Shown: piece by piece, positions 2,580-28,716 of the stretch
Layout: the number at the start of each line of letters is the position of its first letter
Position numbering within the stretch: position 1 is the first letter of the stretch
Virus genome (UHGV): UHGV-0176211
DNA: 39,415 nt
Reading direction: 5' to 3' (one strand)
DNA from: a virus
Program-made: the position numbers and the translations under genes
Notes under the pieces: model-generated
Seen by the model: the letters and a program-made list of their open reading frames with translations, nothing else
Database searches by the model: none
What the model was told of the DNA's origin: nothing

Positions 2580-3991
2580 CCACGATTAATCCTATCTTTG
2601 AACCGTTCATTGAGGCGCATCGCTACAAGGTCGCCAAAGGCGGTCGAGGTAGCGGTAAGTCATGGGCAATTGCGAGGCTGCTTGTTGAGGCGGCGCGTCG
2701 GCAGCCTGTGCGTATTCTCTGCGCTCGTGAACTGCAAAACAGTATCAGCGATTCGGTAATCCGGTTGCTTGAAGATACCATCGAGCGTGAAGGATATTCG
2801 GCTGAGTTTGAAATTCAGCGTTCCATGATTCGTCATCTCGGAACGAATGCTGAATTCATGTTCTACGGCATCAAAAACAACCCGACGAAGATTAAATCGC
2901 TCGAAGGTATTGATATCTGCTGGGTGGAAGAAGCGGAAGCGGTAACGAAGGAATCATGGGATATCCTGATACCAACCATCCGCAAGCCGTTTTCAGAAAT
3001 ATGGGTGAGCTTTAACCCGAAGAACATCCTCGACGATACCTATCAGCGATTCGTCGTAAATCCTCCTGATGATATTTGCCTGCTGACGGTGAACTACACC
3101 GACAACCCGCACTTTCCTGAAGTTCTCCGTCTGGAGATGGAAGAGTGCAAACGCAGAAATCCGACACTGTATCGTCACATCTGGCTTGGTGAGCCGGTAA
3201 GCGCAAGTGATATGGCAATCATCAAACGTGAATGGCTTGAAGCTGCAACCGATGCGCACAAGAAACTCGGATGGAAAGCGAAAGGCGCTGTTGTTTCTGC
3301 ACATGACCCGTCAGATACAGGGCCAGATGCTAAAGGTTACGCATCGCGCCACGGTTCGGTAGTTAAGCGCATTGCCGAAGGTCTGCTGATGGACATCAAC
3401 GATGGTGCTGACTGGGCTACTTCGCTGGCGATTGAAGACGGCGCTGACCACTACCTGTGGGATGGTGATGGTGTTGGTGCCGGGCTACGCAGACAGACAA
3501 CGGAAGCGTTCTCCGGCAAGAAAATCACCGCCACGATGTTCAAGGGAAGTGAATCGCCATTCGATGAAGATGCGCCGTATCAGGCCGGAGCATGGGCCGA
3601 TGAAGTCGTACAGGGCGACAACGTTCGCACTATTGGCGATGTGTTCCGCAATAAGCGAGCGCAATTCTATTACGCGCTGGCTGACAGGCTGTATCTGACA
3701 TATCGGGCGGTTGTTCATGGTGAGTATGCAGACCCCGACGACATGCTGAGTTTCGACAAAGAAGCGATAGGCGAGAAGATGCTGGAGAAGCTGTTTGCAG
3801 AACTGACGCAGATTCAGCGCAAATTCAATAATAACGGGAAGCTGGAGCTAATGACTAAGGTCGAAATGAAGCAGAAGCTCGGTATTCCATCTCCTAACCT
3901 GGCTGATGCGCTGATGATGTGTATGCATTGCCCGGAGTCGGCTGCGCAACCCGACTATTCCAGTTACTCAATTCCTTGTGGTGTAGGTTGA
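2576..3991 (+). CDS. Terminase large subunit
   Basis: 471 aa; Walker A GGRGSGKS near N-terminus, C-terminal nuclease-like region; ATGA overlap with small subunit. Confidence 0.9.
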   Translation: MTTINPIFEPFIEAHRYKVAKGGRGSGKSWAIARLLVEAARRQPVRILCARELQNSISDSVIRLLEDTIEREGYSAEFEIQRSMIRHLGTNAEFMFYGIKNNPTKIKSLEGIDICWVEEAEAVTKESWDILIPTIRKPFSEIWVSFNPKNILDDTYQRFVVNPPDDICLLTVNYTDNPHFPEVLRLEMEECKRRNPTLYRHIWLGEPVSASDMAIIKREWLEAATDAHKKLGWKAKGAVVSAHDPSDTGPDAKGYASRHGSVVKRIAEGLLMDINDGADWATSLAIEDGADHYLWDGDGVGAGLRRQTTEAFSGKKITATMFKGSESPFDEDAPYQAGAWADEVVQGDNVRTIGDVFRNKRAQFYYALADRLYLTYRAVVHGEYADPDDMLSFDKEAIGEKMLEKLFAELTQIQRKFNNNGKLELMTKVEMKQKLGIPSPNLADALMMCMHCPESAAQPDYSSYSIPCGVG

Positions 3992-18152: not shown

Positions 18153-18656
18153 TTACAGCCCCAACAGATGGTCAGCAACCATGTTTGCTGCCTTATAAGC
18201 TATAGCTGCCTCATCAATGGTGTTGAATCTCCCAAGAGTTATGTTTTTACCTGAGAGATGTATCTGAGCTTGCCATTGATTTCTGGCTTGACAGAAAGTT
18301 ACCCCCTTGATTCCAGTATTGCTATTTCGAGGTCCGACATTTAACGCATTTACGACCCTGCTAACATCTCTAAGGTTTGAGATTGCGTTATTTCTTCTGT
18401 TTCTATCAATGTGGTCAATCTCTTGTTTTGGCCATTCGCCATATACATACAGCCAGGCAAGTCTATGTGCAAAATATCTTACGCCATCAATACTAATTGC
18501 GTTATACCCACAAGGAGTGATTGTGCCAGCAGCTTTACCAACAGCGCCTCTGGCGCTTAATTTCTTTTTCCAGGTGAAAATTCCTGTTTCTTTATTGTAA
18601 TCTAGAACCTCCATAAGGCGCTCCCGAGTTACTACCTCGTGACGTCTCTTACTCAT
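18153..18656 (-). CDS. HNH endonuclease with AP2-like DNA-binding domain (homing-endonuclease-like)
   Basis: 167 aa; HNH motif [18 protein letters not shown] and AP2-like segment [37 protein letters not shown]. Confidence 0.8.
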
Positions 18657-22844: not shown

Positions 22845-23112
22845 TACTGATAGCGCCATAGCGTGAGCGGTAATTACGCAGGCGCGGGTCGATATATTCA
22901 GGCCACTGCATATCCTGTTTTCTTTGCAGTGGGTAAAAACTTGCTTGCCAGTTGTCGAGCCATATTTGCTTTGCGTACAGATCACTAAATCTTTTCGTCA
23001 TCCGTTCATCAGAACTACCAGCAATAAAAAAACCGCGCTCGATTTGATCACGGGCTTCTTTTAGAACCTGCTCTTTTGTTCGCGGTGGCGACGGAGGTTT
23101 TAAATAATCATT
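22837..23112 (-). CDS. Hypothetical protein
   Basis: 91 aa from MNDYLKPP...; start overlaps the upstream stop (ATGA). Confidence 0.35.
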
Positions 23113-23773
23113 CATCCTTACGCTCCATATTCTCCAGCAGAGTAGCAGCCTCTCGAGGAAGCTCGAGTGCAGGGTAAACAGCGCGCCACGCTTCGTAAGG
23201 GTAAGCATTTACACTGCCGTAGCGAGGACAGAAGACTCTTTTAACCTCCACGTTAGCCTCAACACACCAGCTCTTGAGTGGTCGCCACAGATTCTTGGCA
23301 TCAAGCCCAAAGTCTGGATTAGCCTTAACCACGCGCAGAACATCGTAATATCTCACAGTCTGTTGAAGAATCAGTTTCAGTCTTTCTTTCTCTTCCCAGA
23401 GGTCGGCGGCCAGTCGCAACGCCTCACCCATTGTTTGCGGTACAGGAAATGTCGACTTAGCCGCGCTTTGCCGCATTGTCTCCAGCTGGTCAATCAGCGA
23501 ACGACGGACAGCTTTTGACTCGCGAGCCGCCACTCTCATGGCTTGTTTGTAGCTCATGACAATAGTCACCTGATCCGCGCCACCTTTTGTCTTATCCATG
23601 GGGGTTACGAAAATTTCGTAAGCCTCCCCATCCAGCTCATCCTTAACCTTGGCAATAAAATCATTGTTGCGGACCGGTTTTTCTCCGCACAATCTCCGCG
23701 CCTCATTAACCATCTTCAATAGTGTTTGGCTATTGATGGTTTCGTCGTGCTGCGTAGTAATTAACTCATTCAT
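23108..23773 (-). CDS. Antirepressor-like protein (partial KilAC-type segment)
   Basis: 221 aa; PVPQTMGEALRLAADLWEEKERL resembles the KilAC junction segment seen in the 244-aa paralog. Confidence 0.4.
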   Translation of the reverse strand: MNELITTQHDETINSQTLLKMVNEARRLCGEKPVRNNDFIAKVKDELDGEAYEIFVTPMDKTKGGADQVTIVMSYKQAMRVAARESKAVRRSLIDQLETMRQSAAKSTFPVPQTMGEALRLAADLWEEKERLKLILQQTVRYYDVLRVVKANPDFGLDAKNLWRPLKSWCVEANVEVKRVFCPRYGSVNAYPYEAWRAVYPALELPREAATLLENMERKDE

Positions 23774-25294: not shown

Positions 25295-25580
25295 TTAAAT
25301 CAAACCCTCATCAGTCAGCTTGCCGACAATCCACATCTCCCCTTCGGCGTAGAACATCGCCTGAGAGCGGCCATTTTCTGTCTCCCGCATGATTCCGTAG
25401 CCCTTGTCGATAAACCATTGCTGGAAGGCACGACCTCGCTTAACAGACCGGTTGTACACGCCAAACTGCTCGAGCTGCTTGTTCAGCCACACGGCGGATT
25501 GCCCGAACTTCTGCGCCACCTGCGACGCGTTATAAAGATTGTTGCGCTCAACGATGCGATCGTAAACCTCGGCTTTCGGC
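25295..25580. repeat. Inverted-repeat copy 1 (antirepressor C-terminal segment)
   Basis: Reverse complement aligns with 37745..38031 at ~90% identity by eye. Confidence 0.6.
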
Positions 25581-25966
25581 GCTGCGATTGATAGTTTCTC
25601 CTGTGCGATCAGCTTTTGTTCATACTCATTAGCCCATGCTCTGGCAGCTTCCGCTGGGTTGGCGAAGTCCGGTAGCGCTGCTTTGCGCACCTGCTCTTCC
25701 AGTTCCTGCCAGCGATCGATAATCCTTGCACGAAGTTCGACACTGTAACCAGAAACCACCAGCAATGTGTCACGCTTAGTTAAAAGCCATTCTCTTTGCG
25801 ATTGGTTGTTATATCCCTTGTAACTTACTGATTTACTTGATTCACTCAAATTTGAGTGAATGAAATCAATATCTCTTAATACATTGTCATGCCGTTTGCC
25901 TGTCAGTTCCGCAATCTCACGGCTAGACATTGTTTTTACTTCTGCGGTACTTATTAAACTGTTCAT
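25295..25966 (-). CDS. Antirepressor (Rha-type N-domain plus KilAC-type C-domain)
   Basis: 223 aa; N-terminal MSSREIAELTGKRHDNVLRDI, C-terminal ~95 aa nearly identical to the C-terminus of the 37297..38031 product. Confidence 0.65.
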   Translation of the reverse strand: MNSLISTAEVKTMSSREIAELTGKRHDNVLRDIDFIHSNLSESSKSVSYKGYNNQSQREWLLTKRDTLLVVSGYSVELRARIIDRWQELEEQVRKAALPDFANPAEAARAWANEYEQKLIAQEKLSIAAPKAEVYDRIVERNNLYNASQVAQKFGQSAVWLNKQLEQFGVYNRSVKRGRAFQQWFIDKGYGIMRETENGRSQAMFYAEGEMWIVGKLTDEGLI

Positions 25967-26388
25967 GATTTCATCTCCTCTCTCGCCGTCTCGTCGCGCA
26001 GGGGTTTAACCAGCATCAAATAGCCGGATTCAGTGAATACCCTCAACCCTCTAGTGGGGATGTCAAAAAACGGGAAGGCCGTTTTTTTATCAAAATCAAT
26101 AACATAAGTATCCTCGCCATCAATAAAATAGCTTGAGTTTCTTGTGTAGCTGTCACGAATTGTAGTTAACGGAACGCCATGCACAACAGCCACCTGCTGA
26201 AATGTAACCACACGCTCACCATTAAACTCGCAAGCTATTAGTGGGATATCATTAATCATCACGCTGTTCATGATTTTCCATCCTATCGTTGATATATTCA
26301 AATCAGGTTCTTTATCGCCGCGATAAAAACAATTTAAGACTCGCATCCTATCCCGAGCTTTATCATCATCAAAAAATGTAAAACTCAT
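25963..26388 (-). CDS. ORF6N-type domain protein
   Basis: NDIPLIACEFNGERVVTFQQVAVVHGVPLTTIRDSYTRNSSYFIDGEDTYVIDF parallels the N-terminus of the 256-aa product at 35577..36347; start uncertain (26388, 26271 or GTG 26403). Confidence 0.5.
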   Translation of the reverse strand: MSFTFFDDDKARDRMRVLNCFYRGDKEPDLNISTIGWKIMNSVMINDIPLIACEFNGERVVTFQQVAVVHGVPLTTIRDSYTRNSSYFIDGEDTYVIDFDKKTAFPFFDIPTRGLRVFTESGYLMLVKPLRDETAREEMKS

Positions 26389-26537
26389 TTCCTGCGATAC
26401 CACGGAAGGTTGACAGCTGATTTCATCGCTTTATTTGCTTCAAGCCACATTTTTGAGTCACCAATAAATCTGGCTATTACTGCTTTGTTCTGTGCAGCAC
26501 GAAGCATCTGGTGATTGATGGCTATTTCATTGCGCAT
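26385..26537 (-). CDS. Small ORF (50 aa)
   Basis: Found by eye; its stop overlaps the ATG of the downstream ORF6N gene (ATGA). Confidence 0.25.
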   Translation of the reverse strand: MRNEIAINHQMLRAAQNKAVIARFIGDSKMWLEANKAMKSAVNLPWYRRK

Positions 26538-27505: not shown

Positions 27506-27569
27506 GTATCAGTCCTCAAACAAGTGGTTTGCTGCCAAAACAATGAACCATCCGGAAATTCCAGATAGT

Positions 27570-27797
27570 TCATAATTCACTCTTCAATACTTCCAACTTA
27601 CTAATCGCCGAAAGATATCCGCGCTGATAGGGCATCATCATTCCTTCGAGCTTGCCACTTCTTAACTCCTCCCTGAGCAATTGTATTGCTTGATCAATAA
27701 CCTCTGCCTTAGCGTCCTTTATGGCTTGCTTGCGGGGCTTTGCTTTCTGCTTTGGCAGATTTCTCAAGCATGATGGAATGTATGTCTGATTCATCAC
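27570..27797 (-). CDS. Hypothetical small basic protein
   Basis: 75-aa ORF immediately downstream of the N-like gene. Confidence 0.4.
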   Translation of the reverse strand: MMNQTYIPSCLRNLPKQKAKPRKQAIKDAKAEVIDQAIQLLREELRSGKLEGMMMPYQRGYLSAISKLEVLKSEL

Positions 27798-28070
27798 TTA
27801 CCTCGCTGTCAGTTGTTTTGATTTCCGGTAGCCTGCCGCGTAAAGAGCTACGTTTGGAAGACAAGTTGAACCTTCATATTTTCTGGTCAACGTTGTCAGA
27901 GTTATCACTTCTGCTCTCATTGCTGGTTTGCGCTTGCATTGCAAGACCACTCGTGAAGGGGTTGGCCTGTGTAGCTTGTCGGAGCTGATCGCCTCCTGAC
28001 TTTGCAGATTTGCACGACGAGCTCTACGGCGAGAAGCTGCGGTTCCTTTAAATTCTGTTTTTCTGGACAT
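27798..28070 (-). CDS. N-like transcription antiterminator
   Basis: Start at internal Met with GGAGG RBS; Arg-rich motif TAASRRRARRANLQ; C-terminus LPNVALYAAGYRKSKQLTAR resembles P22 gp24 as recalled. Confidence 0.6.
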   Translation of the reverse strand: MSRKTEFKGTAASRRRARRANLQSQEAISSDKLHRPTPSRVVLQCKRKPAMRAEVITLTTLTRKYEGSTCLPNVALYAAGYRKSKQLTAR

Positions 28071-28179
28071 AGATTCCTCCCGAATAAACTTTGGCGATGC
28101 AATCTCGAAGCCCCTCCTGAGACGGTTGCTTCGGCATTGCATCCCACAGCTTATGTGGTTGGGTGATCTGGCTTTTCAG

Positions 28180-28215
28180 CCACGTAGTCGAGTGTTCGAC
28201 GTTGTTTAAAGAGCC
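28180..28215 (-). promoter_or_regulatory. nutL-like site (boxA plus boxB hairpin)
   Basis: Minus-strand GGCTCTTTAAACAAC, then hairpin GTCGA-ACAC-TCGAC, then TACGT; nearly the same architecture recurs at 29152..29183. Confidence 0.55.
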
Positions 28216-28260
28216 TGCCAGTCTGTTCCGTTTGGCTTCCAGCTTCCTGCTGATGACTAA

Positions 28261-28289
28261 ATAATACGGGACGTAGTTGATTAAGTCAA
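28261..28289 (-). promoter_or_regulatory. PL-like promoter
   Basis: Minus strand TTGACT, 17-nt spacer, TATTAT, upstream of nutL and the N-like gene. Confidence 0.55.
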
Positions 28290-28430
28290 CACAAACACTC
28301 TAAATGTGGTTAGTTTTTTTATAACTCTATGTATTTTATTGATTTATATTTTGGGAAAGAAAGTTGGCGCCAAGTTTTCACCAAAAGTGGTGAAATCCCT
28401 AAACCCTGTAGCCCGTCAAGAAGCTGGCCC

Positions 28431-28692
28431 GTGGTGCAGGAGATTCACCAGGGTGGTGCAGGAGATTCACCAGGGTGGTGCAGGAGATTCACTAGGGTGG
28501 TGCAGGAGATTCACTAGGGGGTGGTGCAGGAGCTGCACCCAGAACCAGTCACTCTTTTGAACCAGTCAATGAACCTAAAAACATTATGTTCGAACATGTC
28601 CGAACAGAGTGTGAAAAAACTCCTGACCGTCACGAAGAAACCGACAAGGCATTCGAGGAAATATTCTGGTGTGCAGGCATGCGGAAAGCCGG
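28431..28692. repeat. Direct-repeat copy A of an origin segment (iterons plus AT-rich flank)
   Basis: Near-identical by eye to 29986..30225 inside the O-like gene, with one extra 22-bp unit. Confidence 0.8.
28434..28538. repeat. Iteron array A (four 22-bp units plus a palindromic fifth)
   Basis: GTGCAGGAGATTCAC core at 28434, 28456, 28478, 28500; palindromic GTGCAGGAGCTGCAC at 28524. Confidence 0.8.
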
Positions 28693-28716
28693 TCTCGGCA
28701 ACCATTAGTTACGTCA

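Follow-up and report, generated by a model that had tools for sequence, protein, structure and literature searches.

The 39,415-nt genome of virus UHGV-0176211 (hereafter the window, meaning the whole stretch of DNA that was analyzed) carries two directly repeated copies of a lambda-style iteron origin. One lies inside its O-like initiator gene and the other lies 1,533 bp upstream, at the position where a related prophage has its cI repressor gene. On balance, we consider the upstream segment to be a genuine, inherited, non-coding ectopic origin that is primarily a tolerated rearrangement scar and not a selected feature. The segment is thus a lambda-style origin duplicated ectopically at the place once taken by cI in a P22-like phage that used to be temperate. 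Our full-text searches turned up no description of a natural second origin copy in lambdoid phages.

Two directly repeated copies of an iteron origin

A repeat search of the window recovered a direct repeat of 220 nt with 98% identity and a spacing of 1,533 bp (28473-28692 vs 30006-30225). Self-blastn gave a match of 96.7% over 243 nt (28451-28692 vs 29984-30225; E = 4e-115). In the global alignment, 194 bp were 100% identical between the copies (repeat R; 28499-28692 and 30032-30225, both + strand), and all mismatches fell within the iteron arrays. The upstream copy of R runs from the last iteron through the palindromic unit and the AT-rich tract into O codons that extend to residue 167. The first-pass annotation had described a partial second copy of the iteron origin in direct repeat and proposed a pairwise alignment as the check; the repeat search, self-blastn, and alignment all confirm that this copy exists.

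Searches with the iteron core GGTGCAGGAGATTCACC, allowing up to three mismatches, gave nine matches across the 39.4 kb of the window, where chance predicts 0.03. All nine were in two clusters, five at 28433-28539 and four at 29987-30072. The upstream array consists of four tandem 22-bp iterons (28431-28518, + strand) with the core GGTGCAGGAGATTCAC(C/T), located by repeat and core searches at 28433, 28455, 28477, and 28499. It ends in a palindromic terminal variant (28521-28539, + strand) with the unit GGTGCAGGAGCTGCACC at 28523. The resident array (29985-30072, + strand) has three iterons, with cores at 29987, 30010, and 30032, and a palindromic unit at 30056 that is identical to the upstream one. 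Every iteron unit has dyad symmetry with the arms GGTGCAG/CTGCACC, and the final unit of either array is the better palindrome, GGTGCAG-GAG-CTGCACC. Directly 3' of each array is an AT-rich tract with a GC content of 0.34-0.36 (28550-28624 and 30075-30149), which in the upstream copy forms a candidate DNA-unwinding element (28540-28625, + strand). A 12-bp palindrome, ATGTTCGAACAT, follows both arrays, and the upstream one is an inverted repeat at 28586-28597. The four upstream iterons against three in the O-like gene, the palindromic unit, and the AT-rich flank had been described on first reading, and each was seen again in the core search and GC scan.

We compared both copies with three features of lambda-type origins. 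Tandem dyad repeats about two helical turns apart, of which at least two to four are expected, were present in both (4+1 units upstream and 3+1 in the resident copy), as was an AT-rich unwinding tract directly 3' of the iterons. Location inside the initiator coding sequence held for the resident copy (29985-30225 within O, 29723-30493) but not for the upstream copy.

Genome context and replacement of cI

The window is a P22-like genome in which terminase, portal, scaffold, coat, and injection proteins and the tailspike are encoded rightward in P22 order. The early-left genes Erf, SSB, Abc2, Kil, cIII, and N run leftward from 28142. Rightward from 28925 are a cro-like gene, a cut cII, a partial initiator gene that we call O', a complete O-like initiator, and an intein-bearing Toprim primase-helicase. 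No integrase was found in the 39.4-kb window, nor any integrase-sized ORF between the tailspike (end 21366) and the first leftward gene, and the gap of ~0.7-1.4 kb between the contig ends is occupied in a sister contig by endolysin and spanin genes. An HNH endonuclease gene (18153-18656, minus strand) is immediately upstream of the tailspike gene.

The cI-bearing comparison came from prophage L001 of E. coli HCP6S3_I2, which aligns with the window at 27514-28362 on the N/PL side (96%) and at 28923-29408 across cro and the start of cII (91.6%). Between these blocks L001 has 820 bp with a LexA-family cI gene and OR, whereas the window has an unrelated 560 bp (28363-28922). This replacement contains an orphan sequence, four to five intact iterons, the palindromic unit, the AT-rich tract, 57 O codons, a spacer, and a PR-like region. 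The upstream copy had been placed where cI would be, and that placement holds, as the flanks match the cI-bearing prophage on both sides.

To the left of the replacement, the N-like antiterminator gene (27798-28070, - strand; phrog_271; PF25694 N_peptide; 96% to the L001 N region) is the first of the leftward early operon, and the N protein is ubiquitous. A PL-like promoter, TTGACT-17-TATTAT (28261-28289, - strand; 10/12 matches in the promoter scan), points leftward, away from the origin copy. On the right, the PR-like region upstream of cro (28824-28924, + strand) has TTGCAT, a 20-nt gap, and TATAAT, and is partially similar to PR of L001 and of the Klebsiella phage phiKp_30. The sole promoter-scan match in this region was a PRM-like, leftward one on the minus strand (28918-28891). 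The cro-like HTH gene that follows (28925-29140, + strand; PF01381) encodes 71 aa and is 91.6% identical to L001 cro.

Next to cro, cII (29281-29406, + strand) is truncated to 41 codons and matches the phrog_191 profile, which has 106 positions, over positions 1-37. The similarity to L001 stops at 29408, and the junction 29408/29409 joins the cut cII to the leader of O'. A P22-type structural module in a genome with neither integrase nor cI classifies the window as an ex-temperate P22-like phage. The truncated cII and the missing cI and integrase together point to loss of lysogeny. With no integrase in the 39.4-kb window, cII truncated, and cI lost, the phage is probably an obligately lytic descendant of a temperate P22-like phage. 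Ant/KilAC-type anti-repressor genes are kept in the window (23108-23773, 25295-25966, 25963-26403, and 35577-36347) without any repressor gene.

The O-like initiator and iteron specificity

The resident origin is contained in a complete O-like replication initiator gene (29723-30493, + strand) encoding 256 aa. The protein matched PHROG families annotated as "replication initiation O-like" (phrog_270 and phrog_33384), and the Pfam scan gave HTH_36 (52.6 bits) and a sub-threshold match to DnaD_N. There was no match at E ≤ 0.01 to the lambda O family of Pfam (Phage_rep_O, PF04492). The presumed partner of O is a Toprim primase-helicase gene with an intein (30601-33507, + strand; Toprim_2, Hint, LAGLIDADG_3, AAA_25). 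Its product is 968 aa, with the Hint and LAGLIDADG matches at about residues 379-631; the L001 homolog is 626 aa and has no intein, and the intein-bearing form is common to phiKp_30 and several metagenome contigs.

Adjoining the full O gene on its upstream side, O' (29434-29688, + strand) is an 84-aa ORF with only the N-terminal winged-helix domain of an O-like initiator (PF13730), and it ends where the iterons would begin. It represents a third N-terminal type, with a protein cluster seen only in this lineage, and could bind iterons without recruiting a helicase. In the window, a 22-nt patch of O' (29556-29577) has been converted to O sequence; the patch is absent from sister contigs. As judged from this comparison, the patch shows that gene conversion acts among the O'/O repeats, and such conversion can explain the 194-bp identity of the origin copies.

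Relatives with the O N-terminal helix VSRSTVKSHIRALEEMG have iterons of the form GGGGCAGGAGCTGCCC, while the lineage O with helix ISKRSVINHIEALCEAG pairs with GGTGCAGGAGATTCACC iterons. Both arrays in the window are of the GGTGCAGGAGATTCACC type, which was found in this lineage only, beside its distinctive O N-terminal helix. Iteron type and helix change together relative to the relatives, and this covariation shows both arrays to be of the type that goes with the resident O gene. The upstream copy shares its iteron cores, its two origin-proximal units, and its AT-rich tract letter for letter with the resident origin, so we strongly infer that the O protein should bind it and build a second O-some there.

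Composite structure of the upstream element

The upstream segment had been described as a direct repeat of part of the O-like gene. This description is accurate for the origin and O part, but it fails at 28693, where the copy is fused to a 130-bp spacer, and it omits a left flank that looks like decayed iterons. Homology to the upstream copy ends exactly at 28692 in 83 of 83 related loci, and the O gene reads on in those relatives. The copy carries 57 O codons, up to O residue 167, and ~360 bp of the O C-terminal part is deleted between these codons and the spacer. The order in the element is therefore origin, O codons to residue 167, the ~360-bp deletion, spacer, and a diverged PR region.

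The spacer (28694-28823; 28693-28823, + strand, in our feature annotation) resembles the O-primase intergenic spacer of a few relatives, with 80% identity to the prophage L003 of E. coli FDAARGOS_943 (3083-3211) and 76% to phiKp_30, and was also found in L031 and L035. It is absent from the O-primase junction of the window itself. The spacer contains an 18-bp palindrome, ATGGCGTTTAAACGCCAT (28717-28734), that is perfectly conserved among spacers, and a linker, GTCAGAATGCGATTCAGGAGG (28801-28821). Its right half, including the linker GTCAGAATGCGATT(C/A)AGGAGG, occurs again in the window upstream of ninB, where the second linker is at 33672-33692. These sequences form a recurrent intergenic cassette (window 28717-28734, 28742-28823, and 33612-33700) with the blocks CTGTAGxGAGATAAAC and GTCAGAATGCGATTxAGGAGGTTT. 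In some relatives it precedes the primase gene, and in the window it precedes ninB; the 18-bp palindrome belongs to its O-primase version. The cassette may be a module-boundary or translation-start element.

At the left junction, a 68-bp orphan (28363-28430) had no homolog in phage, E. coli genome, IMG/VR, or GTDB representative collections and was found only in lineage contigs. It contains three phased degenerate iteron-like units, at 28366, 28389, and 28414, which match the iteron at 10, 12, and 11 of 17 positions and are in phase with the array. The phased-triple score of the orphan was reached at 1 of 38,889 background positions in this post hoc test. By these matches and their phasing, the orphan looks like decayed iterons.

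The upstream copy had been called non-coding, and the evidence agrees: gene calls differ between lineage members, one of which has a frameshift, and the copy is without a conserved ORF, start codon, or N-terminal domain. A hidden gene was excluded on the same grounds, that is, the lack of a conserved ORF and the frameshifted member. A search for structured RNA in the element found no Rfam match at E ≤ 1, and the fold z-score was -1.5. Three other sources of the segment were rejected. A plain intragenomic copy of 29986-30225 is excluded by the spacer into which the upstream copy runs, which the window's own O-primase junction is missing. Import from a foreign phage of other origin specificity is excluded by the lineage-specific type of the iterons. 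An engineered construct, suspected from the PmeI-containing palindrome, is excluded by conservation of that palindrome in natural prophage spacers.

Recurrence across metagenome assemblies

The window is the ENA short-read metagenome contig ERZ1034773 NODE_91, and several related contigs break inside the iterons, both of which would be compatible with an assembly artefact or a chimera of two co-occurring phages. We consider this explanation extremely unlikely. The same arrangement was found in 11 metagenome assemblies, which belong to four accession series and were made with at least two assemblers (SPAdes-style and MEGAHIT k119). The assemblies with shared junctions are ERZ1034763, ERZ1034773, ERZ1034882, ERZ1034973, ERZ19634781, ERZ19661745, ERZ27289042, ERZ27289064, ERZ27289119, ERZ28620656, and ERZ28624392. 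Three further contigs contain the two copies together with both junctions, namely ERZ19634781 k119_151426 (a 40,877-bp MEGAHIT loop), ERZ1034973 NODE_1092, and ERZ1034763 NODE_473. Both ends of the 40,813-bp contig ERZ1034882 NODE_154 are inside the upstream array, as is the start of ERZ28620656 scaffold_1906, and five short contigs of other assemblies correspond to the unit between the two repeats. The unique sequences at the junctions were reproduced base for base across assemblies, whereas an artefact would be expected to give irreproducible junctions and indistinguishable copies.

The copies could also be told apart by their own mutations. The lineage genomes are 99.4-99.8% identical with a few mosaic indels, and ten contigs carry the resident array without any variation. 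The upstream array came in three forms. In the window and L093 it has four units whose spacers are mixed, in L086 four units of a uniform 22 bp, and in L088 five of 23 bp that resemble the resident array. At least four perfect iteron cores were present in all four complete upstream arrays. In L086, the upstream copy has lost one A from the A6 run in the AT-rich tract and the resident copy is intact. Such copy-specific mutations mean that the two copies are separate loci. The spacers CACCAGGGTGGTG and CACCACCCTGGTG (window 28446-28458 vs 30023-30035) differ by an inverted 3-nt hairpin loop, a pattern that template switching at a quasi-palindrome would leave. An assembly artefact had been named as the finding that would overturn the duplication; the 11 assemblies, the copy-specific array structure, and the one-copy indel instead leave it standing.

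Distribution among relatives

Among 80 IMG/VR relatives of O, 73 had exactly one iteron cluster, seven had no detectable tandem, and none had a second cluster. The comparison with relatives that the first reading had suggested was run in this way, and it confines the second cluster to this lineage. Iteron number varied from 2 to 10 among relatives. Neither the 50,697 phage records nor the complete E. coli genomes gave a match that covered at least 80% of the queried region. One apparent second case of two clusters, L034, was excluded because an IS110-family insertion splits its iteron array. The element (L034 3550-5005), with a 398-aa transposase, lies inside the palindromic last iteron of O and splits origin and initiator.

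The closest sequenced phage is phiKp_30 (LC768498.2). Like the window, it is P22-like, has an intein-bearing primase-helicase and the same cro family, and has no intact cI and no annotated integrase. In contrast to the window, phiKp_30 lost cI by a different deletion that left a ~38-codon cI N-terminal remnant, and no origin copy, upstream of cro; we read this remnant from the sequence in the 1040-1150 region. Its single iteron cluster is also of different specificity, GGGGCAGGAGCTGCCC. Because the GenBank record opens and closes within O, that gene is annotated in part and the iterons are split (1-73; 33620-33740), the two ends together giving ~10 units.

Origin and possible roles of the upstream copy

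O' ends where the iterons would begin and the upstream copy starts at an iteron, which is consistent with deletions that came after the PR-to-spacer block had been duplicated in tandem. In the mechanism we propose, duplication or illegitimate recombination within the immunity-replication region would have produced the upstream copy. The observed order would result if this block were duplicated in tandem and everything from cI through the N-terminus of the first O were then deleted, and the same event would have taken the cI repressor and operators from the temperate P22-like ancestor. Recombination with the resident copy probably keeps the upstream copy similar. Any effect would be that of a second O-binding site, through either occasional firing or mild soaking up of O.

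We favor a scar because of the passenger gene fragments, the single shallow lineage, the drifting repeat number, and the degenerate lysogeny features nearby; the degenerate neighbors of the copy are the 41-codon cII and the O' fragment, with no integrase. A variable upstream array beside a fixed resident array is also as expected under relaxed constraint. Against a scar, at least four perfect cores are kept despite evidently frequent slippage, when a costly sink should shrink, and a seemingly decayed left edge next to perfect inner units suggests homogenization or selection. The lineage genomes differ by 0.2-0.6%, which is too little for conservation to separate neutrality from selection.

The retention of at least four perfect units despite slippage keeps alive the reading that the upstream copy is an auxiliary functional origin, which would fire O-dependently and speed early replication in a phage beyond repressor control. 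We regard this as unlikely, though it is the leading alternative to a scar. It has all cis elements of the resident origin, with four to five perfect iterons and the palindromic unit followed by the AT-rich tract and its 12-bp palindrome, and at least four intact units occur in all complete lineage members. The site lies in the interval separating PL from PR; these promoters are divergent, and negative supercoiling between them would make the AT-rich tract easier to open. The lambda minimum is two iterons plus an AT-rich tract (PMC7466680). However, the copy is restricted to one closely related lineage and is missing as a second cluster from all 80 relatives, the extra O codons and spacer look like passengers, and in one member the A-run within the AT-rich tract contains an indel. 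The lambda origin needs nearby transcription, and the promoter scan gave no rightward promoter reading through the upstream copy. Distinctly less probable is a regulatory iteron cluster that would act by titrating O, by looping or handcuffing with the resident origin 1.5 kb away, or through an O-some just upstream of PL that modulates the early promoters. Such a role would suit cognate iterons that are not part of the initiator gene and that form a direct repeat with the origin at a distance of 1,533 bp, with the array start ~80 bp upstream of the PL -35 hexamer, and O-binding DNA in trans does inhibit lambda (PMC4488673, PMC3349717). Yet negative copy control is without obvious benefit to a lytic phage, the unwinding element is kept, unlike in classical control loci, and the variable unit number and spacing (22 vs 23 bp) contrast with a precisely phased architecture.

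It is very unlikely that the repeats matter mainly as a recombination substrate, with a crossover between the 194-bp repeats freeing a 1,533-bp circle that persists as a lambda-dv-like or defective-interfering mini-replicon. The predicted circle would contain an origin, PR, cro, O', and O residues 1-167. The perfect 194-bp direct repeat and the gene conversion between neighboring repeats visible at the O'/O patch are consistent with this idea, as are two k119 contigs (L096 and L097) of 1,652 bp that self-close with a 119-nt overlap (1,533 + 119). But the same sample, ERZ27289064, also gave a contig of 39,173 bp whose first base lies 119 nt ahead of the end of R. The 1,652-bp loops are therefore the ordinary de Bruijn graph outcome for a two-copy repeat, and the reciprocal deletion genome, without cro and the O N-terminus, would be non-viable. 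A broader version has two initiator-dependent origins 1.5 kb apart bracketing an early promoter, cro, and the initiator DNA-binding domain, with the ectopic one selected after repressor loss and a 1.5-kb minicircle that could be shed. We give this combination a slender chance; if it were true, the shed minicircle would be a built-in lambda-dv-like or interfering replicon.

The lineage is a natural, recurrently sampled case of a temperate P22-like phage probably turning lytic, with the repressor swapped for a piece of its own replication module. It also offers a natural test of an old question in lambda biology, namely the effect of an extra cognate origin placed in cis on a phage and not on a plasmid decoy. 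Should the copy fire or regulate, the number of origins would be a trait that can evolve in lambdoid phages; an inert copy would gauge how much initiator-binding DNA such a phage tolerates. The paired arrays, one frozen in a gene and one free to vary, are a natural system for iteron slippage, template switching, and gene conversion.

Comparison with known systems

In lambda, two iterons and the AT-rich tract suffice for O-dependent unwinding and in vitro replication, according to PMC7466680, which cites Dodson 1986 and Wickner & McKenney 1987. The lambda and Stx origins resemble those of the window in having tandem symmetric initiator-binding repeats about two helical turns apart, followed by an AT-rich tract and palindrome, in the position of the resident copy within the linker-coding part of the initiator gene, and in an iteron number that varies (four in lambda vs six in Stx; 2-10 in the relatives here) (PMC7466680). 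They differ in that the window initiator is of the HTH_36/DnaD_N type, its partner is a Toprim primase-helicase and not P/DnaB, and a second, non-coding copy exists outside the initiator gene. Lambda is arrested by ectopic ori-lambda or O-binding DNA supplied in trans (PMC4488673), and a similar inhibition required both iterons ITN3-4 and transcription of oop (PMC3349717). The plasmid ori-lambda decoys of those studies (PMC4488673; PMC3349717) share with the upstream copy the presence of extra cognate iteron DNA outside the phage origin that is able to bind O, which here is predicted. Those decoys are multicopy, act in trans, and are inhibitory, whereas the window has one extra copy in cis that is evidently compatible with propagation.

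Two clusters of the same initiator-binding repeats kilobases apart on one replicon are also known from P1 incA, R6K alpha/beta/gamma, RK2, and P4 ori/crr. The R6K iterons are 22 bp, and P4 needs its second repeat cluster in cis. Classical iteron control loci are without an unwinding element. The window resembles copy-control loci in having a cognate iteron cluster outside the origin proper, 1,533 bp upstream and in direct orientation. It departs from them in its AT-rich tract and palindrome, which are identical to those of the resident origin. In a bipartite origin of the P4 ori/crr type, both repeat clusters are needed in cis and are bound by the primase-helicase itself; the window has two clusters and encodes a separate winged-helix initiator. 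Unlike the plasmid control loci and P4, the extra cluster of the window is a recent duplicate with an unwinding tract and gene fragments, carried by one lineage only.
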